From an uncultured Elusimicrobiaceae bacterium (GTDB lineage Bacteria > Elusimicrobiota > Elusimicrobia > Elusimicrobiales > UBA9959), in assembly GCA_964622585.1 (NCBI GenBank), contig CAZUQT010000001.1:1-59285 (forward strand): a stretch of 59,285 nucleotides of DNA, given 5' to 3'. The position numbers and the translations under genes are program-made. The notes under the pieces were generated by a model. That model was given only the letters and a program-made list of their open reading frames with translations, made no database searches and had not been told where the DNA came from. Within the stretch, counting starts at the first letter, position 1. The number at the start of each line of letters is the position of its first letter. This document shows positions 8,954 to 53,939 of this stretch, piece by piece.

Positions 8954-8962
8954 GCGGTAAGC

Positions 8963-10612: not shown

Positions 10613-10639
10613 GTCAAGCATCGGAAATAAAGGAAACAT

Positions 10640-12094: not shown

Positions 12095-12108
12095 AGCTTT
12101 ATAGCTTG

Positions 12109-12424
12109 CTTGGGCGGCCTACCGTGGGGACGGGGTCATCAAAACCGGTGTCTCGCACACCGTGCTCGCACCTGCCGCTCTCGGCCTCGGCGCTACGCAA
12201 GCCTCGGCCTCCGAGGGGCTTTTTCTGACCCCGTCCCCACGGTCTCCGCCCAGAGGCTCATTGGACAGAAGGCGGGCTGACGCATAAATTGAGTGGAGCG
12301 GGTGGCAAGGGTATGGGTTCGGAGCGACCTCTCGGAGGGCGAGGCTTGCGTAAGCGCCGAGCCCGAGAGAGGAGCGCGGCCACGGTGTGGCCGACGCCGT
12401 GAGCGACGGACCCATACCCTTGCC
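12109..12424. repeat. structured intergenic repeat, copy B (composite: full unit plus a second hairpin unit) between convergent gltX and the giant gene
   Basis: 15-bp inverted repeat ACCGTGGGGACGGGG (12121-12135) / CCCCGTCCCCACGGT (12229-12243). 14-bp inverted repeat GGCAAGGGTATGGG (12304-12317) / CCCATACCCTTGCC (12411-12424). The 23-nt family core is at 12313-12335. The subunit GGCGAGGCTTGCGTAAGCGCCGAG occurs in both orientations. Confidence 0.85.
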
Positions 12425-12438
12425 AGGCCCCGCGAACC

Positions 12439-15400
12439 TTAGTGTATCACACCTATCTTCCTCATGATCACCTTGCTGCCTTTGGGGCTGGAGGCCTTCA
12501 CGCGCACTATATAGCGGCCCTTGGAGACCGTGCCGCCCAGGCCGTTCTGGCCGTTCCAGAGCACGTGGTTCGGGCCCAGTTTGCCGCCGTCCGAGCCGCT
12601 GGAGAACCTGAATTCGCGCACCACGTAGCCAAGCAGGTCATAGATCGTCATCGTCACTTCGGCATTGTCATTTAAGGAGTAAGTTATATCGACCCTGCCT
12701 TCAACGCCGCCCTTGCGCAGGTCAACCGGGTTTGGATAGCTTGAAACCTTGGTAAGCAGCTCCTTGCCTATAGTGGTCCCGGCCGGGGTGGAAACGGTGG
12801 ACCACTCGGAATGCTGGCCGGCGAAGTTCCAGCTGCGCACCCTGTAGGTATAGTAAGTGCCCAGCGGCCTGGGCGTTTCCCCGGGCACGGTGGCGTCGCC
12901 GACCGTATAGATATTGTTTATAGCGCCGCCGGTCTTGAAACCTGGCAGGGCCGCTACCGTCCTCCAGACGGGGCTGATGCCCTCGCGCTCCTGTATCTCG
13001 TAGGACATCACATTGGACTCAGGGTCCTCCGAGGCGGCCCACTTGAGGGTATACGCCTGACCCGAAGCCTGGCCTCTGGCCACCTGCGGCTCGGGCGCGC
13101 CGGGACTCGTGGGATTAGTGACGTCGATGCGGTAGATCATTATCGGCACGCCGTTCTCGCTGGGGATATAGCGGCCGTCCGCCATTATACCGCGCACGGA
13201 GACGAGGTAGCCGCGGTCGGAAACCGTCTCTCCCCAGGAGGTATGCGGACCCCGGAAAGAGCCCTGTATGCCGCGCTGGACTATCTTGAACGAAACATTG
13301 TCCAGCTTGTTCACCAGCATGATCTCGTTGCCGACGTAAACGATACCCTCGGCGGCGAACCCGTCGGCGGACTGCACGGTGAACGAGGAGGAGTTAACCT
13401 CTATGCGGGTAAGCAGCTTGGTGAAGTGGCCGGGCGACAGCGCGACATTGGTCACTTTGCCGGCCAGCACGGGCCCCGTCCCGGCGGGCTGCCAGGAATT
13501 TTTAATATTGGTGGGTTCGTTGTAGTTGCCGCCGAGCGAAACCTCGTACGAAGCTACGGGGCCGGAGGCGGGGTTCCACATAGCCGACAGCTCCGTGGTC
13601 TTGGCGGACCAGGCGGAGGGCACGGAACCGAGGTCGGAAACGGCCAGCAGCACCCTGGCGTTCCTGACGTTATCGCCCAGGAAGTAGAGAGGCTTGCCGG
13701 TGCCGTCGTCCATTATGCGGTCCGGCACATAGTCCATATTGCTCTCATAATCCAGGATCCCGTCGCCGTCGATATCGAAGGAGGGCAGGCCGGTATTATT
13801 GAGGCTGATATTAGTGCACCTGCCGGTGCCGTAATAATCGAAGTTATCCGGCTTCCCGTCCCCGTTTATATCGAGCAGCGGCTCGCCGGCCTTGCAGCCG
13901 GCAGGGGGCGAGTTGTAGATCCAGTAGGCGGGATCCGCCAGGGGCATATTATTGGCGCCCAGCAACACGCTGCTGGAGACGCTAAGCTGCGCGTAGACGG
14001 GGTAGCCGTTGGAGGCCAGCATGATAGGCCTGTAGACCGGGGTGAGGGGAATGATGGCCGGCGAGATCAGAACCCGGTTGGACGTCATCGGGTAGCTGTC
14101 GCCCGCATACTGCCCGGCGGCGAGCGGCTGGCCGCTCAGCCCGCGGAAGTCGACGAAGGAGTTAAGCGACAGGCTGGCGAGGTGGCCCAGCGTGTCGGCG
14201 CCGGAAAGGTCGGTGGCCGAGCTGATATCGCAGGTCAGGTGCAGGACGACCGCGCCGCTCGAGACTATCAGGTAAGGCAGATTGCCGTCCATTATGCTGA
14301 CCGTGATGCCGTTCTTGAACGAATTGGTGGCGGAATTCACCACGTAGCCCAGGCGGTAATCCATTATCGGGTTAAAGGCCCCGTCGCCGTCGTCCTTCCA
14401 GAGGGAAACGGTGGACAGGTCTCCGTCGCCGTAGCCGGGCGTGAGGCTGTTGATGGAGCCGGCCTGCGTGAACCTGATCTGGCCTATGGCGAGATAGTCG
14501 CTCAGCGTGGCCAGGGTGTAGGTCATCATCGGCACGTTCTTCGTGTTCTTCTCCACCGAATTGGGCGAAACGTTCATGCCGGAGGCGGAAAGGGTTATAG
14601 CCCGTATAGGCACAAGGCTGGAACTGAACGGGTAAACGTCCAGGTAGGTTCCCTTGTTCAGAATCTTGGTCACGCCCATATAGATACTGGGAGAGATATC
14701 ATGCGGGATATTGACCGTCAGCCAGGACCTGTCGCGCACCATAAGGCCGACCTTGTTCGCCTTCACGGCCTGCTCGCCTATGTCGTACACGGCGAAATAG
14801 GTCTGCGGCAGCGGGCTCAAAGTCTGCACTTGGGAAAGGTTGATCTGGATCTGGGTGTTAAGGACGTTGTCCTGGTCGTAGAGATCGACTTTCCGAACCA
14901 CGGCCTGGGCGGGATGGTTGACCTTGGGCGTAGTAAGGTCGCCGAGCTTCTCGCCTCTGGACATGACGTTCAGGTACGGCTTGCCGGAAGGCGTAGTGCC
15001 GGTGCTGTTATAGGTGGCGAGCTCGGCTTCGCTGATATAGATGCGGCCGGCGGACGGGAAGCCGGCGACGGAATCCAGCACCAGGTGGAACGGAACCGTG
15101 TCGGTGGAGGTGAAGGGCGCGTACAGCGTGGTCTTGGCCTCCGAAACGTTCACGTCGTTCACGTCCAGCAGGTCGTTCTGGTTGGAGTCCTGGTAGATCG
15201 AGACGAACTTGACGTCGGTATTCCTGGCGAACGGCGCGTTGGGATCGTTGGAGGCGCCGGTGCGCTGGACTTTTATGGCGCTCCAGCGCGCGTTACCGGC
15301 CTCGGTGGCGAGATTTAGGCGGACTACCGGGACCCTGACCTGGGCCTGGCCCACGCCGCCCGTCTGCACCAGCTCGGCCGCCATATCGTAGACGCCCATG

Positions 15401-18400
15401 GTCACGAAGGAAGGGATCTCCTGCACCGTTATCGGCATGGTATTTATGGGCCAGGTCGAGAGCGCGAGCGTATTGGGGATGCCGATAGTGAAGTCCGCGG
15501 CGGAATTGATAGTGAGGCCCGCGCCGGAGCCCACCTTCGCGAACTGGGACATATCGTAGCTTATGAAAGCGCAGGACGGCACGGTGGTGACCACGATAGC
15601 GTTCTTCAGCACGATATTGACCGTGCCGGAGGAGTAGGCCTCGTTGCCGTAGCTCATCAGGTTCGGGTACATCCCGGTCGTGGTGCTGGCGATATCCACG
15701 GGATCCAGGATGCAGTTGTCGTTGGAGTCCTGCCAGACCTTTATCAGGTCTATGTCGGAGTCGCTGCTGGTCCCGCGGCGGTCAAGCTTTATCGCCTCGA
15801 TGCGGGCAGAAGTCTTGTCGGTGACCATGCGCATGGCCAGCAGGCCGACGCTCTTGTCGTTCTGCACCACCGTCACCGGCGAGATATCCTCGGGAGTGAG
15901 CGAGATATTGTTGAGCGTGGGCATCAGGACCGCGACCGGGCTCTCCACGGGCTTCAGGAAGCTCGCGTTGTGGCCGGAGTTGTCGGGGCCGAAGATAAAG
16001 TTTGTCTCGAACGGGATCTGCACTCCCAGCACGTCGTTCTGCGGCTGCAGCTGGGCGTGGGAGAACCGTGCGGTCTTGTCGATGTCCATCGAGATGAAGA
16101 CCACGGTGGGCGTGGCGCTTACGACCACGTAGTCCTGCTTGTTCAGGGCGGGGTCCACCACGTAGACGGTGGCCTTGCCCACGGGGTCGTTCACCCCGAA
16201 GCGCCCGGTGCCTATCACCGTGTCCGCGGTGTTCATGCCGGTAGCGGCGTCGCGGTCGAACACCCCGTTGCCGTTATCCTTCCAGACCCTTATGTTGGCC
16301 ACGTCGGAGTCGTAGCCGTTGATGCCGGCCGGCTGCCTGCGGACCAGCTTGAAGCCCTTCCAGCGCACGCCGTAGCCGGAGGTCGTCAGCGACATCTTCA
16401 GGAAAGGATAGTTATCGGTACCCTGCGAGACCATGATACCCAGCGCGGTTCCGGAGCTGTGGGTGACGATCGGCGTGCTGAAGGCGCCCCGGGTAACCAT
16501 CCACAGCGAGGTTCCGACAATACCGTCGTATTTTATTATCTCGTTGTCCGCCGTGAGGTAGCCGGACGTGGGCAGGCCCGCGGTAGAGACCACCGCCCAG
16601 GCGGCGTCGCTGGCCCCCGTGGTGTTCACATCCGCCGCCAGGCGTATGGCGGGCGCCGACGCCCCCCCGTTAGGAGCGAAGATCTGCTCGGTCAGCACCG
16701 TAATGGTGCTGGGCGCCGAGATGATCTCGCGGACCTTGGAGGTGAAGGTCAGGTTGGAAGCCGCCTGCGAGAAGTAGTTCGGCAGGGAGATGGAGTTCTT
16801 GGCCGGGTCGTCCGCGCCCGGGCTGTTCTGAGCGAAGGATTCCGGCTTGAGATAGGCGCCGATGAAGCGCGAGTTGCCGAAAGCGTCGTTGGGCAGGGCG
16901 GAGTCCTTCATGTCGTAGGTCAGGAAATAGCGCCGCGAGAGCGCGCGGGCGGTGGCCTCGTCCGGCGTGATCACGCGCTGCGTGGAGAGGTCCACCCTGG
17001 CCGCCAGCGGGCCGAAGATAGTGTTGCCGAAAGTCCCGGAACCGACCAGCGTGTCGTTGGCGCCCAGGAAGCCGTTATTGTCCTTGTCGTACCAGACCTT
17101 TACGGCCGCTACGTCGTTGGCGGCGGTGGCGTCCTTGATGACCGTGCCGGTGGCGTAAACCAGCAGCCAGCGCCAGACCGCGTCGGCCACGTCGGTTTCT
17201 ACAGTAAAGCTCAATATCGGCTGGTTGACGGCTTTCTGCTGGAGCGTGTCCCCGGTAATGGTGTCGGTAGCCCTCACCATGACCGAGTCGGCGTATTCAG
17301 CCACGCCGCCTATCAGCGAGAGAGTCTTGCCCGGGCTGGAAACGCCTATATTGGCGGGGCTCATGAACTTGGGCGCGTCGATGAGGAAGTAGTCGGTAGA
17401 GCGCGCAGCCATGCCGAGATAGGAGAAATTGGAGACATTGGCCAGCGGGTCTATGTCGTAGGTGACGAAGTAGTCCTTGGGCTCGGTGAAGATCACCTGC
17501 CCGTCCATGTTGCCTCCCTCCCCTATCAGCGGCAGGATGGCCTGGCCGGAGATCACGGTGCCGCTGGACCAGAGCACTTTGGCGGTCCCTTCCGCGGCGC
17601 GGGTGATCCCGCCGAAAGTGTTGGTCAGGACGTCCACGCTGCTATAATAGACGACTTCCTTTAAAGCCGGGTCCGCCTGGCCGTCGTTGATCACCAGCCT
17701 GCCCGGCGCGCGCGGGAAGGGGCTGTCGGACGGGAAGAACTTCTGGATATCCACTACGCGGATGACCGTATCGGTGGAGACCAGCGGGGTCTTGAGGGTG
17801 TCGTACGGGAACTTCCTGTCCTGCGAACCGATCAGAATGACCTCGGTATCTTTCACCGTGGTAGTGGTCTCCAGCAGGCCGTCCTTGTTGGAATCGTGCC
17901 AGACGCTTATCTTCTTGACGTCGGTGACCTTGTTCCACGCGGGCGTATTCCCGTTCTCGGCGCCGGTCACCCAGCGGTCCAGCTTGAGGCCCTTCCAGAC
18001 CGCGGAACCGATGGTGTCCTTGATCTGCATCGTGAGGCGGACCACGGCCTTGTTCTTGTCGTTCTGGGTCACGAAAGAGGGCTTGCTGAAGTCGTTGGGC
18101 GCCGACTTGTTCACGTCCGCCAGGTAGACCATGTCCGCGGTGGCGTACAGCGGAACCGTGGAGGAAGCGACGGGCGAGAAGGCGCCCACCACGCCATCCA
18201 TGAGGCTTACGGCCGAGTTCTCGAGGCGCGCGCCGTGGGTTATCATGGTGGCCGGGTCCGGGGGCATCGGCGAAGGGATGGCGTCCGGCTTGAACTCGTA
18301 GACCACGTAATACGTGCGGGTAGCTATGGAGACCAGGCCGTCCACGCCGGGGTTATAGAGCGGCAGGACGAAGGTCCCGGGGTCGGCCGGGTTGAAGACG

Positions 18401-21400
18401 GGCGGGTTGGCGGGGTCCGTAACTTCCTTGTCTATAGCCTTGTCGAAAGTGCGCACGGTGGACGTGGAGGTGTCGGTATCCGTTTCCAGGAACAGCCGCA
18501 CGCTCTTCAGGTCCGAACCGGAGCCGGTGCCGGTCTTGATTATCCTGAAGGACCTTATGGTTCCGACGAAGTTATCCGTCCAGGCCTTTATCGCCAGGAA
18601 CCCGGCGCGGTCCACGCCCTGCTCGACGTAGGCGTTCTTGCCGGCGTCGACCCCGGCCTGCCACCAGGCGCCTATATCCGAACCCTCTATGCGTATGGTA
18701 GCGGGCTGGTTGCGCACCGGGGAGGTCGCGGTGATTATCGGGAAATTATTGTACGCCACGCCGACCAGCGTGGAGTTAAGCACCACGAAGTCCGGGTTGT
18801 CCATCACCAACGCGAAGCTGCGCGGGGTGGCCGCTACCGTGGACATGCGCACCGCGAAGAAGAAATTGCGCGCCGTGTTGGAAACAATTGAGGCCGTGCC
18901 GACCTTGACGCTGAGGTCCTCGAATTTCCAGCCCCGCAGGCTTTCGTCGTAGGTTCCGCTGGACATGAAGATATCTACGGGCTTGGCCCCCAATACAGCT
19001 TCGCCGTCGAAGACGCCCTGCTGGCCGGCCGCCGTATTGTCGGCGTACATCCCGATCTCGATGATATCCGAATTAGCCAGCGTGCCGGAGCTCTTGACCT
19101 GCACCGACTGCATGTAGGACGAAGGCGCGCCCGCGGGCATGGCCTGCATCGTGAGGCGCAGCATGGGCACGGGGGAGGGCACGTCCGCGATGACGCCGTC
19201 GCCCTGGTAGATCGCGTACTTGCTTATCCCTATCGAGGTCTTGGAGACCGGCAGGGGGTCTTCGGGCGCGAAATCCCTCGGAGTTATCACCAGGCCGGAC
19301 AGGACCACGTCCGCGTTCGAACCTACGGGCATACCGCGGCTCGAGTCGCCGGTATAGCCGTAGAGCAGGGGATTGTTGTAATCGGTCGCGCTCACTTTCA
19401 GCGTCTCCACCAGGGTATCCTGCACCAGCAGCTGGTGCTCGCCGGCGTCCGCCTGGATAAAGGTGTAGTCGGTGGTATTCGGGGCGGGATAAGCCCACAG
19501 GTCGGCAGAGCCCTTGGTATTGGTCCGCATATTGACCTTGCCCAGGTAATATTTCCCGTTCACGCTGTCGCCGGAGGCTATATTCCCGTACTGGTCGCGG
19601 GCGCGCAGCTTCAGGTAGCCGGCCGAGCGCACGCGCAGCGGGTTGGTGAGAACGTAAGGATGGTGCAGCGTCAGGTAAGCCGCGTTGCCGGGAGTTATGA
19701 ACTGCTCCTGGGTGACCGCCGGCAGGACCTGCGCGTTGGAGAGAATGGTCGAGTTGACGGTGATCGCCGCCGAGCCTACGATAGTGTCCCAGACGTAAAT
19801 ACTGGCGTAGGAGCTGCCCGCAGGCATGTCAAGGTCGTACGGGCTGGTCTTAAGCAGGTGCCAGCTGGGATTGGTGGACAGCGTGGGCGTAGACGCGTCT
19901 ATGCCGCCAAACGTAGTAGTGCGCGCCGCCGAGAACCTGAACCTGACCACCGAAGAGGTGGTGGTATTGTTCTCATAGCGGTCCTTAAGCACCACGCCAA
20001 CCGGGGTCGGGGTGGTTATGCCCAGCAGGTAATCCGAATACTGCACGGTGGTTCCGGCCACCAGGCGGCGGGGCAGGCTGGCGAAAGCGACATGGTCCGG
20101 CAGGTTCGGAGTAACGGTATACGAAGAAATTGCCGGCAGCCAGCCCTTCGACAGCACCGTGGTAATGGTCATCTGGTGCGTAGGCGCGGAGACCAGGGTG
20201 TCTATCAGGTAGAAACTGGTGGTAGCCTGGCCCAGCGCCATCGTGGCGGTGCCGGGCTTCGGGACGAAGCCGGAGGCGTTCGGAGCCGCGAACTTCACGT
20301 CGCCGAGCGAGCTGGAATTCATCGTGAACGCGACGCCGGCGTTGAGAGCGTCCTCCTGGCCGCCTGACACGGGGGTGGGGTTGCCATAATGGTCCTCTAT
20401 GGACATCAGGAAGAACTGCGAGGTGACGCCCGCGGTCAGGACCTGCCCGGCGCTGGAGCTGACATTGACGCGGTAGGTCAGGTCGGGGGTGATCGTGACC
20501 GACTGCGTGGAGGCGGCCCAGCCCGTCATCTCGGGAACCTCGAGCTTCAGGATGGGCTTTATCGGCGCCGCCGAGGAGGGGTAGACGCTGGAGGCCGTAG
20601 TGTCAAGATAATAGAAAGTGGCAGAGTAAACATTGAGCGGTATATCCAGGGTAGTGATCGTGGACGAGAACACCGGCGGGAAAGCGCCGGAGACCTTGCT
20701 CGAAACGGAGAAGGAGAAAGAGTCGTTGATAAGCGAAGGCTGGCGCGTAAAGGTCGAAAGCACCACCGTCACCGGCGCGGTGGCCACCGACGGATTGTCG
20801 AACATGTCGCGCAGCTCGGCTTTGAAGATCTGCAGGTCGAGGAACCTGTCGGTCAGCTTCCCGGCCGTCATGGAGCGTGGCGCATTGCCGAAAGCCACCT
20901 GGGAAATGGCCTGCGGGGTAAGGCGCAGCTGGTGGATGGCCGGCTGCATCGCGCCGGAGCGCGCCTCCAGCTGCCAGTAGCCGGGCCTGCCGTCCTCGAA
21001 GTCGTTGGTCGCCGGGTCCACCCCTGAATAGGAGGAGGTCCTGTCTTTGTAGCGGAAGGAAGCCCTGGTCTTGTTTATCGGGATGATCACCGCGGAAACG
21101 AACTCATTGTCGCCGAAGTCGCGGAAACCATAGTCACCAACGTTGCCGAAAGTGGCCATGGTCCGGCCCAGCCCGGTATGCACCGCCACCTGGTCGGCCG
21201 GGAGGCCCAGGTAAACCCCGGTCTCGCCCTGCTTCGTCACATTGTCGAAATCGTCGCGGCGCTCCACCGTGAACAGCGCGCCGGTCCCGGCCATCTCGTT
21301 TATGCCGACATTGGCCTCGGTCTTTATTTGCGCGTCGCCGGCGTTGGGAACCAGGACCAGCTTGGAGGGATCGCCGCCGGTGGTGGTGAGCACGCCGCTC

Positions 21401-24400
21401 AGGTTCTGCCTGGCCGCGGCGTAATTGTCATAAGCGGCCTGGCTGGAGGGAACCGTGGTGGTACCTATCCAGATGCGGGCCCAGTCCCCCGACTTGCTCG
21501 AAACCTGGTAACCGAGCTTGGGAGAAATGCCCACCTGGCCCGAAGTAGAAGTATAGATGAGGGTCGAAACGCCGACATCCTTCCATTGCGTGTCCCAATA
21601 CTTGAGAGCGCCGGTGGAGCCGTACACCCGGCCCATCATCACGTAAGCCGGCAGCCCGGCCGAGGGGATGTCGTTGTCGAAGGAGTCGGCGAGCTGGCCG
21701 GTCAGCTCGCGCACGGCGCGGCTGTCCGCCTTGCCGGCGGGAACCTCTTCGTCCGCGTTCGGAGTGACGCGGTAGATCATGGGCGGGCCGGGGATCACGC
21801 CGATGGCCAGCGGCGGGTCCACTTTAATGGTGGTGAAGAACGAGTCATGCGCCCCTATCGTATCCGGGCCGGCCTTGCGCAGGACGAACCAGTTCACGAG
21901 GTTCTTTACGCCGTAATCGGAGTAAGCGTAGACGGTGGTAGCCTGAGTAAGGCTCGGGTCCTGCAGGCTCTTTACCTGGTCGGTGACCACGAAAGTCACG
22001 GTGCCGAGGTAAACGTTAGGGCCGGTGGAACAGATGTTTCCGTAGGTGTCGTGCACGGTCAGCTCCGCCGAGAAAGGTATGCCGGCCACCACGGTGGTGG
22101 AGGTAACCACGTAACCCATGCTGACCGCCGGGCCGGGATTGACGGTCAGCGTGGAGATGCCGGAGCTGTAAAGTTCCGTGCCAGCCGCGGAGGCCGCGGA
22201 GGTCGCGGCCAGCACGGTGTAGGTCGTGATGGAGACGCGCGGGGCGATGGAGAACACCGCGCTGCCGTTGGAAAGCGTCTGGACGTCGGGAACGCCGGCG
22301 TGCGGGTCGCCGGGCAGCTTAACGCGCACCTCCGGCATGACGGCTACCGGGTTGGTATCCTGCCCCGCGGCCGTGGCTTCCGTCGCCCTGTTAAAGAAGA
22401 TATCGGTCAGGTAAACCCCGGCGAACAGGGCGCCGCCGCCTATGGTGTGCTGGGAAGGAGGGCCGCTGCGCCCGGGCCATGCCAGGGAGGCGGAGGTGTT
22501 GCGGCAGGGAGGGTTTATCACGCACTTGCCTTCCACCAGGGACTGGCCCGGAAGAACGACCTCGAGACGCACGGCGGTGGAGGCGTAGACCTTGAAAGAG
22601 ACCTTGGCCGCCGCGTCGTCCGAGAGACAGGCCCCGCCGGCGTTTTCCGAACAGTCGTAGTTGTCGGAAGCGTCGACCGGATACACCTTGGCCGAGGCCA
22701 GGTTGGTCTTGGTGACCAGATTGAGCGGTATCTGCCGGGTCCCGTAGTTCAGGGGCGCGCTGTCGAAGTCTATATCGTAGATGTCCGAGGTCACGACATA
22801 GACCGTGGGCCCGACCGACAGGTCTTTATAGACGTTCATATAGCGGTCGACAAGGTTGACGGTGGCGTTAAGGCCCGCTCCGGCCGTCTGGGTATTAGGC
22901 GGGGACAGGGCCTTTTTACCTCCGGCCGGGTAATTGCCGGAGCCGGGGTCGGCCTGCTCGCCCGGCATCAGGAGCTGCAGGCCCATGGGTTTCGCGGGCC
23001 GCACGGTAAAGGTCGAGGACTGGGGCTCCGGGTTCAGGCCCGAAGAGGAGTCGGCGGTGACGGTCAGGTAATGAGTGGCGGCGGTGCGCATATTTACCAG
23101 GATCAGGTCGGAATAGCCCGAAGCGGTATTTATGGACGCGGTGGCCACGGGCAGAGCATAGGGGTCCGTGGGCGTATTGACGGTTATATCCGCGGGTTTA
23201 CCGGGAACCAGATTGAAGTAATCGTCCACTACGCCCACCTGCACCGAGAAGTCCTCTCCGGCCGTCTTCACGGTAGGCTGGCCGCCGCGCCCGGTAGCGG
23301 AGACCTGGCTGAAAGTCTCTCCCGAAACCGAAGGCATTATCAGCAGCAGGCGGCGCGGAACTCCGGGCACCACATGGATGGAAGTGGCGAGGTCGAAAGC
23401 GCCGGCCATGGTCGGCGGGCCCGGGGAGACGGCCTCGGCCCTGAAGACGGTATTGCCTGCTCTGATCGGCGTCACGGTGAAAGTCCCGGAGCCGGTTATA
23501 ACCTGGGAGGCGGGCACGATCAGCGCCTGGGGGTCGTTGACGGAAACAAGGCGGACTTCCTGGGTGGCGCCGGGCGTAAGGTTCCAGGCATAGTCGGTGA
23601 TATCCACGGTAACGGTGAAGGGGAAGCCCGCCTGCTGGCCTATATCGCTGCCGGAACGGCCGTTAGTGACGGACCCGCTGACGCGGTTCTCGCCGGGGAT
23701 CATCGCCCGCAGCCTGGTGGGCACGTAAGGGTCGAGAAGGAGGCCGCCGCTCACGGTGGTCCCGAGCGGATTGCTGACCGGGTTGTAATCGGCGACGGTG
23801 ATCGTCCTCGCGCCGGCCGTCCTCAGTGAGATATTGCTCACGGCGGCGCTGCCGTCCACCATAGTGAAGTCTCCGAGCGAGGGGTTGAACGGATCGTTGG
23901 AGGTCACGCGGATGGTCTTGTCGAGGGCGGGGTCGGGAACCCTGTTATAGCGGTTATCGGCCGCGTAAACCTCGGCGTTGAAATAAATGCTGGCCGTCTG
24001 GGTGGAAATGGCCCCGGCCACGCCGTAGGGAGGAACGACTTTGCCGGGCACCAGATACTGGGTGGGCAGCAGAACTATCAGGCGCGAAGCCGGCCCGGGG
24101 TTCACTGTTATGCCGGAATCCGTGCTGGTGGCAAGCTTGGGCGTCGTATTATCGAAGTCGATGGCGTCTATCACCAGGTTCGAGGTCGCGGCGCTGGGAA
24201 CGAAGCCCGTTATAGCGGCGGCGCCGCTGTCGAGCAGCTGGGCGGGCGGCATCACGGCGTAGATGTCGTTGGAAAGAAGCTTCACGCTGCGCCCGTCGTT
24301 GGCGAGGTTGCCGAAGACGTCCACGGACCTGACGGTTATAGTGTAGGTGGTACCGGCTATCAGCGGGCCGGCCGTGCCTGTCTTGCCTTCGCCTATGCCC

Positions 24401-27400
24401 TCGGCCACGGTCTCGTTGGGAACCATCAGCAGCAATTTCTTGGCGGGAGCCGGGTTGACGATCATGCCGCTGACCGTATCGGTGCTGAACTGCGTTCCGA
24501 TACCGCCGAAGCCGCTTACCCGGACGGAAAGGCCGGCCGACTGGTTGCGGGTCACCGGGATCACGGTGAAATTAGTGGTACCGTCGATCAGGCTGCGCTG
24601 GTAGGGAGTCGGGTGCATCCCGCGCAGCTGTATATTGGCGTCATTGAGGAAATCTATCTGGACATTGGGCGTGTTGGAGGACACGGCCATAAAGGGCGTG
24701 GTTCCTTTCACAACGTTATAATACTGGTCCACAAGATAAACCGTCATCTGCGCGGTATCGCCGGCCGTCAGCGCGGCCGGGGCGCCGGATTTGCCGCCGG
24801 GCGAGGGGTTGGCGCCGTAAGGAGGCAGGCCGGACAGCAGGCCCTGGCCGGGAGGAACGACAAGGTGCAGCTTGACCGGGCGGTTCCACCACACCGTCAC
24901 CGGTTCGGGCGTGAAATATACCGAGGTTCCGCCGCTCAGCAGCAGGGCCTGGCTCTCTACCTTTATCGTCTGCGTTCCGGCCACCACGGGGTTGAAGCTT
25001 ACGGTGGTGCTGCCGCCCGCAAGGGTATAGGACGACGGGTTGATATCGTACGGGTCCGTGGGAATGGAGGCGAAGACCTTGAAGTTGGCCGTCAGGTCGG
25101 TATTATAGAATTCATCCACGCCGTAAACCCTGGTCTGGAAAGTGGTTCCGGCCAGCAGCGGGGCGATGGTCCCCGACTTGCCGTAAGGCTGCGCGTCGAA
25201 CTTGCCCTGGACGCGGTCTTCGCCCGGGAACAGCGCGAGCAGGCGGTCCGCGGGATTCGCGATCACGGGCACATTTGAGGAAGGGTTGCGCATATTGCCG
25301 GTGATAAGACCCTGGCTCGAGGCCAGCACGTTCCAGCCGGTGTCGTTGGCGGAAACGAAGGTCCTGGAAACCGTGGTGGAACCGGTGAAGTTAATATAAG
25401 TATCGGAAGAAACATTATTGTTGTTGGGGTCGGTATCCGTCACGTAGACATGGGCGTACGAGGAAACCACCAGGTTCCAGTACTGGTCCGTGACCTGCAG
25501 GAGGAAGGGCACGCTGGTTCCGGCGGTCTTGGTGCGCGGCGTGCCGGTGCTGCCTTCCACGCCGGCCTCGGTGCGGCCGGGGGCCGGCAGCTGGCCGGCG
25601 CTGTCCAGGTCGGCTATGACCTGTACGCGGTCCGCGGTGGTCGGGGACACGGTCACGTTATTGGAGCCGTAAATGCCGGGGTTGTCGCGGTCTTCCGTGC
25701 GCAGCGTGCGGACCGCGGCCTTGCGCAGGCGCAGCGGGGCGGTATAGATACCGTAGTCGCCGATCACGAAAGTGTGGGTCATCGGCAAGCCGGTAAGATT
25801 ATCCGGAGAAGAATTATTGTCCATGACCTCGGGGCCGCCTGGAACGCCATCCACGTAATAATTGACGGTTCCGTTGTATGCGGCGGCGGTCTGGCCGGAG
25901 CCGTTCAGGCCGTCCATGGCCCTCACCCGCAGGTAGACGTCGGAGCCGGCCACGGCGCTGTTTATAACGGTATTGCAGCCGGAATCCTGGCACATTATAA
26001 CTTCGAAGCTCTGGGCCGGGGCCGCGATGTAGAACTTGGGCCCCTGGTCGACTATGCTCTCCGTATTGCCGGCATTATCGGTAACGCGCACCCATGAGAC
26101 ATAAGGCTCGCCGCGGACCCAGCAGGTATGGGCGGCGCGCTCGGCGTCGTTATCGCAGACCAGGCCCGTATACTGCCAGTTGCCCAGGGTATCGGTGAAC
26201 TGACCCGGCGTCCAGACGGGGACCCCGGAGGACGGCGTCCAGGTGGAACCGTTCCAGAAATAGCCGGTGTCGTCGTAGCCGCCGGAGTTTATAGGCCCGA
26301 GGGCCGGGAGAACGAAAGGCGCGGTATCCCTGAAGACCAGCGTTTCCACTTTGCCGCGGTGCCAGGACTGGTCCGGATAGACGCCGGAACCGGTTCCGTT
26401 TATGCCGTTGGTAAAGCCGGTATCAGAGGCATTGCCGAGGATCGCCTTGTTGTCATTGTACACGGCCGTATTGACGGGTGTGACCACGGCCGACTGCGGC
26501 TCGGTGGTATCCCACAGGAAGCGGGAGGCCCCGACGATGTTCTGCACATTGCCGATCGAATCGGTGGCGGAAGACTTGATAACGTAATGATAACCCGTAG
26601 TGAAGGTAAGCAGCGTGGGCGAGTAAGTCCACGAGGACTGGTAAAGGTTCTGCGGCAGGATCGGCAGCCAGGTCTCGGCCGTATTAACGAAAGCCGAGCC
26701 GTCGAAGTACTTCGCGCCGCCGGGCTCGTTCTCGCTCCTGATAGAGATCTTCGCGCTGGCCACCGTGGTCACCGCGTCCATGGAGGTGCCCCAGATGAGG
26801 GGCATGGTGTTATAGGAGGTGTCGATGCCGGGCATCACGGGCGCGGACACCGGGGGCACGTTATCGAACACGAAAGTGCGGGTGGTCAGGGAGACCTCGT
26901 CGTTGGTCGTGCCGTCCCTGGCCTTGGTCACTATATAGAAGGTCTTGCCGTTTCCGCCGTCATGCGTTCCTTCCTTCCAGGCGAAGGTGGCGGCACCTGG
27001 ATTGTTGAAGTCGAAGCTGGCGTCGTTATAGGCCCAGGGGTTGGGCGTGGCCTTGGAGCCGGGGGCGCTCGCTATCGACCACCAGCCCGTGTCGGAAGCC
27101 GACCAGTGGGGAACGACGGGCTGCCAGTAATAGGTGGTCGGGCCCGACAGGTACCACATGCGGATATTCACGTTGCTTATCGGAGAGGTCAGGTCGTAAG
27201 AAGTTCCGCTTATCGACGTCATGGAGTAATAAAGCGTGCCGTTGATCGGCGGGTAAGACACCAGCGAGACGGGCGCGACGTCGTCGAAGCTGAAGGTGGA
27301 GGAGGCCACCGAGTAATTGCCGGCGCGGTCCGTGACCTTCGCCTCCACGCGCAGCGCGCCGTCGCGGTTGGGCCATGGCAGGGAGGAGGAATTGTAGCTC

Positions 27401-45400: not shown

Positions 45401-48400
45401 ACCATCGACGACATATCCACCGTGAACTGCGTCTGCATATTCCCAGCGGTGTCCGAAGAACGCACCAGCACCAGGTAGTTGAACCCCGACGCGAAGGCGG
45501 TATCCAGGCCGGCCGGCGCGTATATCCAGCTTGTGGCGTCTGGAGAAAGGAAACCGTTCGCCCCGTTCACCGTTATCCAGTTAGGATTGTCTCCCGTGAT
45601 ATTAAAACTGGTCCCGTCATACCAGAATTGCGTGGGGCTGTATTTGCGCACGGCTATCTGCACGCTCTTATTCGATAAAGCGTCAAAAGCCGTTCCGGAA
45701 ATAGAGGGCAGGGAACGCAGGCCGTTCTTATTAGCGTCCCGCGGCACGACTATTCTCGCCGAAGGAGGCGTTTTGTCGTAAGTAATGCTGACGCCTACGC
45801 CGGGCGGGATATCGGCCTCGAGAGGCTGGCCGGTATTGGGGCCGTATTCCCGGTTCTGCGCCAGGTCATAAGACCATATGACCAGCTTGTACGTTACGCC
45901 TTCGTTGGCGTCATTGTCCATAGCGGCCTTCAGCGCGGCCGGCAGGGTGTATCTGAAATTGGTGGGGTAACCGCCGGCGCCGGTATCGTTATAAACCTCG
46001 TACCATACGGGGTCCGTGCCGCCGAAATCGACAGTGGCCTGTTTCCACCAGCCCGCGGGGGCCGTCACTCTTTTTATGGCCACGTTTACCGTATAAGTGC
46101 CCAATTTCGACTCGAAGCTCTTCACGCCGTAACGTTCGTCCGAGGCGGTGCCGTAGAGCTGGGCGAAACCTGTGGTAGTTCCGGCCAGGGGGTAGGTAAC
46201 GGTGGCGGTCGGCTTGTCTATATCGTAGGCGAAAACGCGCTGGGAGACGGAGGAACGGTTCCCGGCGAAGTCCTCCGACCTGACCTCTACCCTGTATTGC
46301 TTGTCGTTGGAGAAATTAAGCGTGGCGTCATTGTACGCCCAGCTGGCCAGTGTTCCGCCGTTCGCTCCCAGCCATTTGGGGCAGCCGCCGTAACCGCCCG
46401 CCCCGTTATAACAGGTCCCGCCGGCTATATCGGTTATCTGCACGGTAACCGTGCTTACCAGCGAATAAGGAGAGACCTGCCCCGGCTGGCTTGAAGCGCC
46501 GGCCAGCGGAGTAGAAACGCTCACCTGGGAATAAACGACGCTGTCGAGCGGATAAGACAATGAAGCCGCCGGCGGCGTAATGTCATACGTAAATATATAG
46601 GTGGAAAAAACGGCGGAGTAGTTTCCGGCGTGATCGAGCGCCCTCGCCGACACGGTATAGATAGCGTCGTCCCTGAGCATGCCCGGGTCCACTGTATAGT
46701 ACCAGGAGGCCGGCCAGACCAGGCCGGCCGTATTCCAGGTCCCGGCCGCCGACGTCCACGCCGAACCGTTCCAGTACTTTGTCCCGTCAACGCCTGTAGT
46801 TGAGATGCGGACCTCCGTCCATTTATGGCCGGCCAGGTTCGCGGAGGCGGTTCCGCCTATGCCGGGGATATAATTTAAAGCCTGCACGGCTGGGGTATCT
46901 ATGCCGACGGTCGGCGGCGTATTATCCACTATGAATTTCTTGGTAACGTAAGGGGCCTGCTCCCAGTTGCCGTCGCCGGTGCCGTCCGCCAGCCGCGTGG
47001 CGTCTTTGGATTTCACTTCAAGGGCGTACTCTTTGTCTCCGGCCGGCCAGGTGATATCCGGGGTGTACAGCCAGGCCCCGGCCCCGGATGCGTTCTGCCA
47101 TGCCGCCGCCCCGGCGGCCGTTCCGGAACTGAAAGACGCTCCGGTCCAGTAGTATGTGTCCCCTGCATTCAGATATGTAAGTTTTATCCGGGTGCCCAGA
47201 CTATCCACGCCCACGCCCGCGCCGTCAGTGGCGTTCCCGTAGAACCTTGTGCCCCCCAGGGATTGGCCTATATTGGCCGGGGTGTACCTGCCGCTTGTCC
47301 CGTCGCCGTCGTCCACGGGCAGCGTGACGGAAGTTACCGGAGGTGTTTTATCCACGGTTATAACCATGGAAGAGATGTTAAGCGCCAGGTCCGTCTGCAG
47401 ATTACCGGCCACGTCGGTGGAACGCACCAGTAACAGATATTTGGTAACGCCGGTGAATTTTGCATCCAGAGCCGCCGGGGCCAGCATCCAGCTGGTGGCG
47501 TCGGCGGACAGGTAACCGCTGGTATTGCCCTTCAGATCTATCCATACCGGGGCCGCGCCGACCACGTTAAAGCCGGCGCCGTCGAACCACAACTGCGGGC
47601 TGCCCCATTGCTGTATCGCCACTTGCACGTTTTCGTTCCTGCCGTTGTCCAGGGCCGTGCCGGAAATAGCGGGGATGGAATTTATGCCGGCGAGTCCGGG
47701 GGCCGGGACCACTATCCTGGCCGTTGGGGACGCCGTGTCTATGGTAAAAGAAAGCGGGGTAGTAAGTTTTATCCGGCCGGCTTTATCCGTAATGCGGACC
47801 TGCGCCTCATAAGTTTTGCTGTTCTCCCAGACGGGGACCCCGTTATAGGTCCAGGGTTCAAGGTTTGAGTTGAAAGCGCCGTCGTCGGCCGTGACCGCAA
47901 GCCAGATAGGCGGCCCGTTTATCCAGGTACTCCCGTTCCAGAACGAGCTCTGCGCCGCGGTGGAAACGGCCACCTCAACCACATTCACCAGACCCACGCC
48001 GATATCAGTGGCTGTACCGTAAATTTTAGGCACGCTTTTTTCATATATGGCGTTCGGTTCTATCAGGGTGGAACCGGGGTCGTCGCCGTCCACGTAAAAA
48101 TACCTCTGGGAAAAAGGCGTAATTTCCAGCGTGGAGCCGGAAGCCGCCCTTGACTGCACGCTGAACCTGTTGGTCCCTGCCGGCCAGATCCCGGCCACGC
48201 TTTTCGCCCAGCTAAGGTCGTTGGTCCCGAAGAAGCCGCAGGTTGACTGGTTCACCACGTATGTGGTATCCGCGCAACCGGCCAGATAGGTCACGGTGGA
48301 GACCCAGGCGGGAACCCAAGCCGCGTCCCATAAAGTGCAGGAACCCGCGAGATAAGTCAAACATTTCGCGGTCACCCAGACCATATCGGGGTCCGCGGTT

Positions 48401-51400
48401 TCGTTTATTATCCTTATCTGCCCGGTGGTCGCCGCCGCGAGCGTTCCGTTTATCACGGCCAGGTCCGGTTTGTAATAAGGGGAGCCGGCCGGCGGATTTA
48501 AAATAACCGAAACGGGCGACGGGACTATCTTCTGTATCTCGATATAAGAAGATTGCGCCGGCGGCGAAGTCACCCCGGCTTGCCCGGGGAAAGCGTTCTT
48601 ATTACCCACCGCGTCGGTGGTCCTGACAAATATCCGGTACTTCTGATTATCGGTAAGGACCGGGATGCTGGAGGCTGAAACGGTCCAGTTCACGGGGGTA
48701 GCGGTATCGGTGGAAGCGTCCACATAAGCGGCCTCCGGCGGCGGGTTTATCCCGTCGCCCAGGTTGAAAGTCCCGGCCGTAAGAGGGTCCCACCATTGCC
48801 CGCTGGTAATACTGTAGAAAGCCGCCTGCACTTTCTGTATCCGCGTATTGGTGTCGTTAGCAGTGCCGGAAACGGAGGTGAGCAGATAGATGCTGTATGT
48901 GTTTGGAACCTGCACCAGGGCGGTCGGCACCGTTTTATCGGCCCTGATCGTGATCTGGTTCCTGCCGGCCTGAAAAACCGACTCTTCATTGGACTTTAAG
49001 GCGTTTACGGCGTCAAGCGCATTATCGAAGCTCTTTATCTTCACCCTGTAAGGCCTGCCGTCCTGCATCGCGGCGTAAAGCGTGGAAGTGTTGTAGGAAT
49101 AAGTGCTGTCGGCCACCAGGTTCATGTCCTTCCAGGTCGTGACAGTGTTGCAAACACCGGAGAAATCCGTGCCGTTCCAGCAGTTAAGCGTAACCTCGTC
49201 CCTCACCTCGGTCTGCATCTTGTTTATTGAGCCGCCGGAGGCCAGGCCCGCCAGCGGCAGGTCCAGGGCGGTTCCCTTTATGAAGTCCAGCGTGTACCCG
49301 GCATTGGAACTGTACCAGGCGCTGTCGGACGGCGTTGTTATGGTGGAGGTGGGAGGCTGCACTTCGTATTTGAAAGACTTCTTCAAAGTCGTGGACGAGC
49401 CTATGTTCCTGTAGCTTGTATCGGGCAGGTCCACATTATCCTGCGACCAGGCGTACACCTTGAATTCCTCGGCGGTAGGCACCCCGGTCCAGAAACCGCC
49501 CATGGCCTGGTGCACCCAGTCGGCCGCCGGGGACTGGCAGGAGTCGTTCCTGCCCGCCTGCCAGCCGTTGACGGTGCCGTTCCACCATAAAAGGTCGGAC
49601 TGCCTTTGTATGCCTATGCAGGTCATGTTCAGACCCGCCTGCCTGGTGGTATCCGGCATGTCCTTCGCCGTTCCCGAGATATTGGTAAGGGCCGTATCGG
49701 AATAAGTCGCTCCCTGCGTTGGGTTTAAAACCACGGTGTCGGGCGCCGTAGCGTCGTATTTAAAGACCACCGTGGAATAAACCGTGGAATAATTACCCGC
49801 CTTGTCCACGTCCCTGCCGACATAAGTGTATTGTTCTCCGGAGAGCCAGGCTATGTTGGAGGACTGCCACGTCTCGTACGGGACCGTGGTGGTGGTCCCG
49901 GCCACGTTCCAGATGCTTCCGGTCTGGTCTATCCAGGAGGAAGAGACCTTGTTCCACTTGGCAAGCGGCGGGTGCTCCAGCGTGTATTCCACCGAATTCA
50001 CTTTCGAGAAACCGTCATTGGCGGTACCGAGCAGCCTGGTCAAGGAATTAAGACCGTAATTCCCGCCCGCCGCCGGGAAATTTATCCGCACCGTGGGGAC
50101 CTCGCTGTCGTACAGGAAATAGCCGCTCGTGGCCGGGGACAGCGCCGTGCCGGTGGAATTGCCGGCGGCGTCGTCGGCGTAAACCTTGACGTTATACCAG
50201 AACCCGTTCTGCCAGTTGGTCGATACGCCGACGCTGAAAGAGGAAGGGTCCGAAGAGGGGGCGTACTGCGCGGAAGCGAAAACAGGGGACCCGGCGCAGT
50301 TGGTTCCCCACTTATCGGCGCCGCCCTGTTCGTAAACGCAGTAATAAACGCGCCTCGTGCCTATGACATTATCCACCACATTGTCCGCCAGGGAGCCCTG
50401 TAAAAAGTTAAACGCGCTCCTCCACACATTGGACGGATCGCCCTGCGAAACGGGCGCGTTCGGCATCAGCGCCTCCGGCACGCTTACCGTGATAGTGGGC
50501 GCGGTGACATCGTAGTAAAAATCCCTGGAGAGACCCAGCGTCTCGGGGTTGAATTTATCCGAGGCGCGCGGTTGTATCCTGTATTTCCTGCCGTCTATCC
50601 AGGCCGGGAGCTTGGGATGGGAGATATCGTCCGGCGCCGCTTTCACTATAAAACCCAGGGATTTATCCACGCATTCGTCGCCGCAGGTAAAATTAGTGAG
50701 CGCGCCGGGAGGTGAAGGCAGTTTCACCAGATAATACCAGGTATCCGAGGCCAGGAAACCGGTGGCGTCATAGCCGGTCCAGTAAGTATCGTCGTTGCCC
50801 GTGCCCTCCCCTATGGTTCCGTTGGGGCCGGCGTTTATCAGCCGCATCTGCGCGCTTTTCAGGCCCACGCCGGCGTCCGCGGCCGTACCCTGTATGGCCG
50901 CAAGGGAGTTGACGCTTGAATTCGGCGCCGGGACGGTGAAATTCAGGCCCGGCCCCGATTTATCTATCTTGAAAGTCACGGCGCTTGAAGGGTTGCCGAA
51001 GCCCCTGTCGTTCGTCTTGCCCCTGCTTACAAGGGTATAACTGCCGCCGTCCGCCTGGGCCGCCGCGTTGTTAGGCCAGGCCATGTTCGTCCACGCCGTT
51101 ATGCCGCTTGTGACCTGCAGCCACTGTTCCCCGGAAACAGCCGGGTCCACATAGTTTACGCTGTCCCACTGCCAGCCGTCCGCGCGGGTGATCCTCATCT
51201 GCGGCGCTATATTGCTCTGCCCGGCCGCCGGCGCAAAACCGGAGATGCCCGTGATCTGGGCTATACCGCTGGAATACATTACAGGCTCCACCGGGTAAGA
51301 CAAGTCCGATGTGGGCACGGTTATGGTGGCGGCCCCGGTTTTAAAACCGTCGCGGCCGTCCCAGTTGGAAACGACCATGTTCATAGGCCCGGCCGCTACG

Positions 51401-53153: not shown

Positions 53154-53939
53154 CTATTCCAGGCTTTTCAAGACATTATCCGCCCACCTGGAGAGTTTTT
53201 CGTCCTTACCGGACTTAAGGGCGGCCAAAGCCGCCGCCGCTTTCGGGGTCCCTATCTTGCCCAGGCTCTCTACCGAGGCTTTTTTAACAAATTCGTCATT
53301 GTCCTCGACCGCGGCCTTAAGCAGGGCTTCAATGCCTTCGTCAGCCTTCAGTCTGCCCAGGACCTCTGCCGCCTTCCAGCGGGTGTTCCTGTCCGGATCA
53401 GCCAGGAGCGAGGAGAGGGACGGCACTGCCCGCTTGTCATCCAGGTCGCCCAGGCCCTCCATCAGCCCCAGCCTGGACTCTTTATCCGCCCCGGCCAGGG
53501 CGTCCGAAAGGGTTTGAAAAGCCGAATTATCCTTTGACCCGCCTATCAGCCTGGCGGCTTTCTCTTTTATGAGCGGGTCCTCATCCGCAAGGGATTCCCT
53601 CAGCAGCGAAATTTTTTCCGGGTTTTGAGGCCCCGAGAGCGACTCCAGAGCTTTCCTCCGCTTTTTGTGGTCGGCGTCTTTCAGGTCTTTCCTGACCGCG
53701 TTCAGGTCCTGCGCGGGCGCGGCGGCGGAACTTATGGCCAGGGCGGGCGGGGTTTTTTTATTTACCGCGCTGTTCTTCAGCCCCGCCTTCACTCCGGTTT
53801 TAGCGGCCGGCACCTTAGCCTCTTCGGCGGAAAAAACGGACGCCGGGCAGAGCAGGATGAAATACGCGGAAGAAAGCAGGAGTGCCATCGCGGCTATCGC
53901 TCCGCCCGATCCTGCCGCCGCAGCGTTTTTCTGTTTCAT
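53154..53939 (-). CDS. small secreted HEAT / PBS-lyase-type repeat protein directly upstream of the giant gene
   Basis: I prefer the ATG at 53939, which has an AGGGAAG SD-like element ~5 nt upstream, over the TTG at 54080 used by the ORF track. Signal-like N-terminus GGAIAAMALLLSSAYFILLCPASVFS/AEE. HEAT-like repeats include DPLIKEKAARLIGGS, DKESRLGLMEGLGDLDDKRAVPSLSSLLADPDRNTRWKAAEVLGRL and DEFVKKASVESLGKIGTPKAAAALAAL. Confidence 0.8.
   Translation of the reverse strand: MKQKNAAAAGSGGAIAAMALLLSSAYFILLCPASVFSAEEAKVPAAKTGVKAGLKNSAVNKKTPPALAISSAAAPAQDLNAVRKDLKDADHKKRRKALESLSGPQNPEKISLLRESLADEDPLIKEKAARLIGGSKDNSAFQTLSDALAGADKESRLGLMEGLGDLDDKRAVPSLSSLLADPDRNTRWKAAEVLGRLKADEGIEALLKAAVEDNDEFVKKASVESLGKIGTPKAAAALAALKSGKDEKLSRWADNVLKSLE

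Follow-up and report, generated by a model that had tools for sequence, protein, structure and literature searches.

The stretch of DNA analyzed here, referred to as the window, is a complete NCBI contig of 59,285 bp (CAZUQT010000001.1, assembly GCA_964622585.1) from an uncultured Elusimicrobiaceae bacterium. Its minus strand carries a single giant open reading frame (ORF), which is preceded by a small gene for a HEAT-repeat protein and by a predicted riboswitch leader. The giant ORF has only one stop, the terminal one, as seen in the ORF listing and its translation. An earlier reading of the letters alone, hereafter the original prediction, had described an uninterrupted 40.7-kb ORF, compositionally like its housekeeping flanks, for a modular beta-sandwich surface protein of about 1.4 MDa. 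The features of the ORF and its product are as follows.

12439 to 53136, minus strand: giant ORF, GTG start, 13,565 codons; probable ATG start at 53079, giving a product of 13,546 aa.
52864 to 53079, minus strand: signal region at the N-terminus (aa 20-91), made up of a conserved extension and then the h-region APVAFFAAAALFFIFQSSAFA; likely cleavage between AFA and AP.
51628 to 52863, minus strand: head, a predicted beta-propeller with Asp-box-like motifs, aa ~92-503 (AlphaFold2 model and Foldseek).
51319 to 51627, minus strand: Ig-like domain after the propeller, aa ~504-606.
26020 to 51318, minus strand: 65 tandem type-1 Ig-like modules, aa 607-9039, with a period of ~128 aa.
19270 to 26019, minus strand: type-2 region, aa 9040-11289, with 11 modules of ~122 aa supported by a hidden Markov model (HMM) plus divergent segments.
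14017 to 19269, minus strand: eight type-3 modules, aa ~11290-13040, with a beta-sandwich core and a VWxDxNxNGxxD acidic loop (HMM).
13657 to 13899, minus strand: cluster of calcium-type loops, DINGDGKPD, DIDGDGILD and DDGTGKP (motif).
12727 to 13128, minus strand: FN3 domain, aa ~13337-13470 (positions 372-437 of profile A5).
12442 to 12714, minus strand: C-terminal beta-sandwich sorting or anchoring domain (CTD) of ~90 aa, aa ~13475-13565, with the conserved ending RKIGVIH.

The coordinates of the original prediction proved exact. Given the base composition of the ORF itself, 391 stops would be expected by chance in 13,565 codons, and the log10 probability of meeting none is -172. The remaining five frames over the same interval have 67 to 683 stops each, and none stays open for more than 933 codons. 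Composition and size also agreed: the GC content at third codon positions (GC3) is 0.79, as compared to 0.80-0.87 for the housekeeping flanks, and the calculated mass of the product is 1,448 kDa. The housekeeping proteins of the window cluster at 90% identity or more with proteins from metagenome-assembled genomes (MAGs) of Elusimicrobiales and Elusimicrobiota. We found no tRNA genes in the window. Translation of the giant gene probably starts at the ATG at codon 20, because the homologue P0048 opens with an extension, ML.A...KA..NK.IF..KS, that is homologous to the segment ahead of the h-region.

A frame of this length could have arisen in assembly, as a chimera or by the collapse of shorter genes rich in repeats. 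The contig does hold an apparent join inside a dispersed repeat at 12.1-12.4 kb, just outside the ORF; contig ends break the gene in most other assemblies, and the copy at one related locus (L003) carries frameshifts. However, none of the repeats inside the ORF is close enough in sequence to misguide an assembler, the best being 192 nt long at 73% identity, and Tandem Repeats Finder detected no tandem repeats. Intact orthologues of 14,428, 11,823 and at least 10,786 aa are present in three independent assemblies, their lengths having been read indirectly from the records of neighboring genes. The longest belongs to STB_10 (GCA_028713125.1), a closely related MAG, in which it was called as a single product on a contig of 310 kb; the other two are from further species. 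The last 11.9 kb of the giant gene aligned with the STB_10 orthologue at 95.5% DNA identity, collinear and in frame; over the last 3,933 codons there were no gap codons and the ratio of nonsynonymous to synonymous substitution rates (dN/dS) was 0.08. The body of the protein after the head measures 12,968 aa in the window and 13,096 aa in STB_10, a difference of about one module. Upstream, the two share the order FtsH-like gene, gene for a 497-aa protein, S41 peptidase gene, HEAT gene, giant gene. Species-representative genomes with a match to the C-terminal 600 aa number 77, almost all of them labeled Elusimicrobia or Elusimicrobiota; the gene is conserved across the phylum. A protein-database search with the C-terminus returned only proteins of at most 1,865 aa, and the three that we traced to their contigs were contig-end fragments. 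We conclude from these comparisons that the ORF is a genuine gene; an assembly artifact is a very remote prospect. Repeat-driven misassembly, a danger named by the original prediction, left no trace within the ORF in the repeat scan and the independent assemblies. The low dN/dS and the intact orthologues support its claim that selection maintains the full length.

The sole hydrophobic segment of the protein, at aa 66-92, is the h-region of a signal peptide that had been predicted before and that, like the cleavage site, was called by inspection. All the homologues of the head also begin with signal peptides. The protein has 45 Cys residues, the majority of which form close pairs within modules, and this fits an oxidizing, extracytoplasmic location.

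Pfam and NCBIfam scans of the head gave no match, GH33 and BNR included. The AlphaFold2 model is confident (predicted local distance difference test score, pLDDT, 82.4; predicted template-modeling score, pTM, 0.85) and shows a beta-propeller and, after it, an all-beta Ig domain at residues 417-518 of the model. Foldseek placed the head among sialidase-, lectin- and integrin-like propellers, the best matches being a bacterial sialidase (1eut, E = 1.5e-10), a human sialidase (Neu2), the glycoside hydrolase BT3686, fucose lectins and the propeller plus thigh of integrin alpha. Relative to the sialidases, identity is 11-13% and the TM-score 0.35-0.5, and lectin and integrin propellers score alike. 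The original prediction had described a unique, Asp-box-like head. The Asp-box-like motifs are indeed visible by eye and the fold is sialidase-like. The head family is small: an exhaustive HMMER search of 1.84e9 representatives detected only 32 relatives (a word-indexed search gave 1). A complete protein of 1,681 aa carries a member of the family too. An IPT-like domain had been proposed to follow. Neither Pfam nor profile searches detected the IPT/TIG family, and the domain found at that position is the Ig-like one, which recurs as a repeat in other proteins of the head family.

Since the top Foldseek matches are sialidases and glycoside hydrolases, and since the head has Asp-box-like motifs, the protein might be a fiber tipped with an active enzyme, held off the cell and degrading polymers or prey surfaces, as proposed for the giant proteins of Omnitrophota. 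Yet the similarity to sialidases is low, non-catalytic propellers are comparable matches, and no GH33 or BNR family match exists. Within the head family, R107 is the only conserved Arg, the other conserved positions being mainly Gly, Pro and hydrophobic residues; the Arg triad of sialidases is not conserved, although this is a weak test because the alignment was made without structural superposition of the active site. With only one conserved Arg, a sialidase-type active site seems unlikely. The defining features of the Omnitrophota giants, many transmembrane regions and a SecA domain, are also missing from the protein, and overall we consider an enzyme-tipped fiber quite improbable.

The head differs sharply between close strains. 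The N-terminus of the STB_10 orthologue (L081, 15963-21632) has two tandem propeller heads, 25% and 32% identical to the single head of the window, and no DNA similarity exists between the heads of the two strains, in contrast to 95.5% identity in the 3′ third of the gene. This suggests a cassette-like replacement at the 5′ end. Exchange and duplication of the head among close strains are as expected of a ligand-binding tip.

Module boundaries in the rest of the protein were defined by self-comparison and self-trained HMMs; whole-protein Pfam and NCBIfam scans returned only weak matches to Big_13, Big_3_2, FlgD_ig and DUF7151. The original prediction of about 65 type-1 Ig-like modules was accurate: the self-trained HMM gave exactly 65 matches, contiguous and end to end, over aa 607-9031. 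Pairwise identity among these modules is mostly 20-55%, and their consensus includes GTA.D...YW.G..W...A.D.AGN...F..D. Searched against the PDB, the type-1 profile matched a bacterial Ig (BIg) domain of SiiE (2yn3, E = 3.9e-6), the RII region of MpAFP (4p99, E = 3e-3) and a repeats-in-toxin (RTX) adhesin (5irb, E = 6e-3); in the Pfam scans, it was to these modules that Big_13 and Big_3_2 gave their weak matches. For the type-2 region, about 17 Big_1-like modules had been claimed. The HMM supports 11 (aa 9179-10663), and about six more divergent segments share with them only the motif AG...D.[YF].N; the number 17 thus fits the span by motif, without statistical support, and the comparison by hhalign of the divergent segments at aa 10,450-11,290 with the type-2 modules was not significant. 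The Big_1 label found no Pfam or profile support. The type-2 profile had no significant match in the PDB or Pfam, and profile-profile comparison revealed no link between types 1 and 2.

The eight type-3 modules, earlier said to belong to no named family, were recovered by their acidic loop and by HMM. Three of the eight contain an insert of ~75 aa. Their model has a core pLDDT of 80-95, and no significant sequence or fold match was found in the PDB (best Foldseek E, 0.026). We also noticed a recurring motif of ~40 aa, G.(I/L)Y(I/V)..(E/N)E(I/L)..Y......L.V..RG..G(T/S)....H..G, at aa ~11816-11860, 12192-12230, 12699-12745 and 13254-13300 (window ~13237-17690). It sits in type-3 modules and in the stretch before the FN3 domain, and looks like a small independent insert domain. 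Ig-type domains are roughly 3.5-5 nm long. At that length each, the ~90 beta-sandwich modules would form a stalk of ~0.3-0.45 micron.

Towards the C-terminus, DxDGDG loops are present at aa 13089 and 13121, in agreement with the calcium-type cluster of the original prediction; they are invariant in the orthologues (columns D124, N126, G127, D128 and D132 of profile A5) and would bind Ca2+. Of the two FN3-like domains proposed, one was verified by a profile search of the PDB, which matched FN3 domains of titin and contactin (E = 3e-5 to 2e-4); the second was not confirmed. The sorting-type domain proposed for the C-terminus is retained as a CTD similar to that of FlgD and to type IX secretion system (T9SS) CTDs. 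In the window, it matches the tails of PorZ and PorU as well as the Ig domain of FlgD in the PDB (E = 7e-3). Among seven orthologues, all the tails match the PorU CTD and six match TIGR04183 (best E = 6e-6). An NCBIfam scan of the C-terminus gave type A-related, FlgD, PorU-tail and PorZ-tail matches only, and no type B CTD. We did not file the giant protein as T9SS cargo, as the CTD of the window scores below threshold and the phylum lies outside the known range of the T9SS.

The region upstream of the giant gene has the following features.

54659 to 54686, minus strand: sigma-70-type promoter, TTGACA-16 nt-TATAAT with a TG extension (12/12 matches), upstream of the riboswitch.
54423 to 54501, minus strand: aptamer, RF01051, of a cyclic di-GMP (c-di-GMP)-I riboswitch; it lies in the 5′ leader of the HEAT-giant pair.
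54303 to 54376, minus strand: long GC-rich hairpin followed by U7, a probable intrinsic terminator or expression platform, present in the minimum-free-energy and centroid folds.
53154 to 53939, minus strand: small secreted HEAT-repeat protein of 261 aa with a signal peptide (HEAT_2, E = 2e-33), ATG at 53939.

The aptamer scored 53.9 bits (gathering score 35) and covers model positions 1-87 of 87. The giant start is 1.29 kb downstream of it and the HEAT start ~0.5 kb downstream, and the 221-nt leader has a folding z of -3.75. The leader has a riboswitch with a predicted terminator-type platform that would respond to c-di-GMP. Co-transcription of the HEAT and giant genes is probable, because the HEAT stop lies only 15 nt before the giant ORF. 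A metagenome scan with an alignment of six closer head sequences, from which the seven best loci were taken, found the aptamer at all seven, 1.05-1.4 kb upstream of the ORF start; with the window and STB_10, nine loci in all have it before the HEAT-giant pair. HEAT-like ORFs of ~215-290 aa separate the aptamer from the head gene in L081 and L085-L090. The HEAT protein also differs between the two strains, with 214 aa in STB_10 against 261 aa in the window and an identity of 41%.

Two further observations were made upstream. At 54100-54230 on the minus strand, there is a 35-codon ORF (MFSAAKGVERSS...) preceded by a Shine-Dalgarno sequence, together with an AT-rich promoter-like stretch; a hairpin follows at 54011-54025. 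The three may form a second regulatory layer. At 55907-57400, also on the minus strand, the 497-aa protein encoded between the FtsH-like and S41 peptidase genes, in a synteny kept in STB_10, has an acidic N-terminus, one transmembrane helix, a Gly/Ser/Ala region of low complexity and a C-terminus rich in Cys (CGCTAQAPCCC), with no Pfam or NCBIfam match.

The control region and the head also bear on whether the giant protein could be a structural coat or sheath, that is, a static spacer or S-layer-like component of the envelope that binds no ligand. Its wide conservation, the strong purifying selection across the phylum and the mostly featureless beta-sandwich repeats would suit such a role. 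But the distal head is hypervariable, and duplicated, between near-identical strains, as fits ligand recognition and not a lattice; control by a c-di-GMP riboswitch suits conditional adhesion; and a single-copy fiber architecture is unlike that of self-assembling S-layer proteins. A coat function is therefore unlikely.

In the relatives, a gene cluster is found within a few hundred bases of the giant stop.

L004, 12082-20600 (also L006-L055, L100 and L101; relatives only): downstream cluster, in the order riboswitch, PorV/PorQ fused to tetratricopeptide repeats (TPR), FliG_M/C-TPR, coiled-coil protein of ~800 aa, FlbD, MotA, MotB.

The riboswitch is a second c-di-GMP-I aptamer, present before the PorV/PorQ gene at 11 of the 11 relative loci tested, distant ones included. 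The adjoining gene codes for a TPR-fused outer-membrane protein that scored 112 bits against NF033709 PorV/PorQ (cutoff 90) and has the same name in the NCBI annotation. The PorV/PorQ gene is linked to the giant gene at 40 of 77 loci, and the MotA and MotB genes at 25-27 of the 77. In the FliG-like protein, the cytoplasmic FliG_M/C domains are preceded by a signal or anchor segment, a periplasmic part at the N-terminus and a transmembrane helix; with this membrane-anchored layout it is not a normal rotor protein. The cluster may code for a non-flagellar, stator-driven envelope machine. No genes for a type I secretion system (T1SS; ABC transporter, membrane fusion protein or TolC) were found in the flanks of the window or of the relatives.

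Possibly, then, the giant protein is a mobile adhesin, the cargo of an undescribed envelope machine in which the PorV/PorQ-TPR barrel, the membrane-anchored FliG-TPR protein, the long coiled-coil protein, FlbD and MotA/MotB secrete, tension or move it, as a functional analogue of SprB/SprF and the GldLM motor in Bacteroidota gliding. The order of the cluster is kept in 25-40 species, the FliG-like protein lacks the usual rotor layout, and SprB, itself a giant Ig-repeat adhesin, is anchored by the product of a neighboring gene and driven by a proton-powered motor (PMC9143113). Genes that lie side by side, however, need not work together; flagellar loci normally have FlbD-MotA-MotB in this arrangement; the window lacks the cluster; and no type B CTD or PorP/SprF-family match was seen. 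We regard a role in motility as doubtful. Equally tentative is the wider idea of a phylum-wide Elusimicrobiota envelope machine, which would bring together a T9SS-like CTD/PorV module outside Bacteroidota, non-flagellar MotA/MotB, a membrane-anchored FliG-like protein, paired c-di-GMP riboswitches and a sub-micron fiber with a strain-exchangeable tip.

That the window has no PorV/PorQ cluster is explained by its left flank, which joins inside the dispersed repeat that borders the giant ORF.

12111 to 12438, no strand assigned: copy of a dispersed, palindromic intergenic repeat of ~330 nt, where synteny with all relatives breaks.

In the window, the giant gene is followed by the gene for glutamyl-tRNA synthetase (GluRS), at the place occupied by the PorV/PorQ cluster in the relatives. 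Positions 6063-12399 match the STB_10 contig that carries GluRS (729 kb) and positions 12294-24241 match the one that carries the giant gene (310 kb), and the overlap of the two matches is confined to the repeat. The junction at 12095-12438 is thus probably a mis-join in the public contig or a repeat-mediated rearrangement, either of which leaves the ORF unaffected. Accordingly, positions 1-12094 (ligA through GluRS) are probably not the native neighbors of the giant gene, and the housekeeping flank that the original prediction described on the 3′ side is probably foreign to the locus.

Copies of the repeat were seen in the window at 6063-6342, 12111-12438 and 59224-59285 (the contig end), and in L004 (11804-11962 and 13778-14120), L081 (243-642) and L084 (3305-3592 and 9466-9785). 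The repeat has long internal inverted repeats (GGCAAGGGTATGGGT...ACCCATACCCTTGCC) and resembles a miniature inverted-repeat transposable element or a repetitive extragenic palindrome-like element; against Rfam, it had no match at the gathering score. In the same flank, a plus-strand gene at 4100-6010 codes for a 636-aa HEAT/Armadillo-repeat protein. Its GC content is 0.48 and its GC3 0.45, as opposed to ~0.80-0.87 for the neighbors; it is missing from the interval between purH and the glutaminyl-tRNA synthetase gene of STB_10 and adjoins a copy of the repeat. This gene was probably inserted recently or acquired horizontally.

Together, these observations lead us to propose that the ORF encodes a c-di-GMP-regulated, outer-membrane-anchored giant fibrillar adhesin with a variable, lectin-like tip, a reading to which we give a probability of roughly 0.6. 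A strong promoter would drive a transcript through the c-di-GMP-I riboswitch and its terminator platform, so that output of the HEAT and giant proteins would be tied to the c-di-GMP level, and with it to a sessile or motile state. The ~1.45-MDa product would leave the cytoplasm by the Sec pathway through its N-terminal signal region. Its T9SS/FlgD-like CTD would then be recognized by a FadL-type outer-membrane protein of the PorV/PorQ family, which would keep the C-terminus at the outer membrane; the gene for this protein would be the one that, in the relatives, lies directly downstream behind the second c-di-GMP riboswitch. PorV and PorP-like FadL-type barrels are known to bind CTD cargo, and SprF, the product of the adjacent gene, anchors SprB (PMC9143113). 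The ~90 modules, comprising the 65 SiiE/MpIBP-like Ig extenders, types 2 and 3 and FN3, would make a stalk a few hundred nanometers long, possibly rigidified by Ca2+, and would project the lectin- or sialidase-like propeller to bind a carbohydrate-bearing surface. The HEAT protein may act as a periplasmic chaperone. The core of the original prediction, a Sec-exported giant beta-sandwich fiber with a distal head and a C-terminal anchor, is retained here for a gene that is real and under selection; the labels Big_1 and IPT and the second FN3 found no support, and the riboswitches and partner genes, which it had missed, are added.

Several observations weigh against this proposal. The proposed partner is known from the relatives alone, as the window has no PorV/PorQ gene, and in one distant genome the PorV/PorQ cluster occurs without an adjacent giant gene, a point that also counts against a role in motility. 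The CTD of the window scores below threshold, with 26.8 bits against FlgD_ig (cutoff 27), 19.2-19.3 bits against Por_Secre_tail TIGR04183 (cutoff 23) and E = 0.066 against PF18962, and the T9SS is regarded as confined to Bacteroidota (PMC11611037). Direct control of the giant gene by the riboswitch is not proven, because between the riboswitch terminator and the HEAT start lie ~340 nt in which another AT-rich, promoter-like stretch and another terminator-like hairpin are found. The sialidase-like fold keeps an enzymatic head possible. Finally, in L003 (ANAN16 scaffold_2144, 1-14722) the orthologue is split into at least four consecutive ORFs on the same strand, as a result of frameshifts from sequencing or assembly, or of decay of the copy.

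The original prediction had stressed that genes of this size are very rare in bacteria. This needs qualifying: according to a preprint (West-Roberts et al., 2023, bioRxiv 10.1101/2023.11.21.568195), proteins of at least 10,000 aa are frequently detected in Elusimicrobiota, and BV-BRC has more than 7,400 proteins of at least 10,624 aa. Elusimicrobia are also listed with the phyla in which proteins of more than 5,000 aa are most likely to occur (PMC11573180). Size alone is not new, and giant adhesins are a known kind. Rather than in gene length, the interest lies in the conserved arrangement of riboswitch, HEAT gene, giant gene, riboswitch, PorV/PorQ gene and stator genes, combined with a swappable head. 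Reports of giant bacterial genes mostly treat them as context-free curiosities; here the context is unusually informative. The gene family is present in dozens of species of a phylum that has hardly any cultured members and whose cell biology has hardly been studied. Its two RNA switches, the second seen in relatives, would sense c-di-GMP, a signal that tells bacteria to settle, and its PorV/PorQ-type partner in relatives is of a kind thought specific to Bacteroidota secretion. The locus yields testable predictions on attachment to surfaces or hosts and offers a natural case for the regulation, export and anchoring of a 1.4-MDa protein. In addition, a probable repeat-mediated mis-join is flagged in a public MAG contig.

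We compared the giant protein with four kinds of known system. The giants of Omnitrophota and related PVC bacteria are of the same size class, at least 10,000 aa, termed large in the preprint; there, those of Omnitrophota are described as having SecA DEAD domains besides many transmembrane regions, and are connected with predation (10.1101/2023.11.21.568195). The protein studied here is not of that type, as it has one hydrophobic segment only, no SecA DEAD Pfam domain and a regular, adhesin-like order of modules.

With the RTX/T1SS adhesins SiiE of Salmonella, MpIBP of Marinomonas and LapA/FrhA, it shares tens of tandem BIg extenders and, as predicted here, a distal ligand-binding region. The output of LapA and of large Vibrio adhesins is controlled by c-di-GMP (PMC6890996), a trait that the giant protein would share. 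The polarity is opposite and the export route would be another one, however, the Sec signal being N-terminal and the predicted anchor C-terminal, and c-di-GMP would act through riboswitches and not through LapD/LapG proteolysis. We rejected assignment to this class on account of the N-terminal signal peptide, the lack of GGxGxDxUx nonapeptides, the beta-sandwich CTD and the absence of T1SS genes nearby.

The leader resembles those of c-di-GMP-I (GEMM-I) regulons in having a canonical aptamer above the gathering score within a 5′ leader with a probable terminator. Riboswitches of this class commonly control genes for adhesins, pili and motility, as in the case of Vc1-gbpA in Vibrio cholerae. 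In the literature searched, we found no report of a c-di-GMP-I riboswitch on a gene for more than 10,000 aa or of a pair flanking one giant gene, and no paper linking Elusimicrobia with c-di-GMP riboswitches.

The fourth system is SprB/SprF of Flavobacterium johnsoniae, in which SprB is a gliding adhesin and a type B cargo of the T9SS. The two differ in several respects. The phylum is another one; the CTD is type A/FlgD_ig-like and not type B; and the giant protein is about twice the size. The partner is PorV/PorQ-TPR in place of PorP/SprF, and MotA/MotB with a FliG-like protein stand in place of GldLM. In addition, the giant gene is predicted to be riboswitch-controlled, and there is no evidence of movement. 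In common with SprB, on the other hand, the protein is giant and predicted to be exported by Sec, with Ig-like repeats and a C-terminal beta-sandwich sorting domain. In both cases, and for the giant gene in its relatives, an adjacent gene codes for an outer-membrane partner, or predicted partner, of the FadL-type, 14-strand family, which in the case of SprB is its anchor (PMC9143113), and both are genetically associated with a proton-channel motor.

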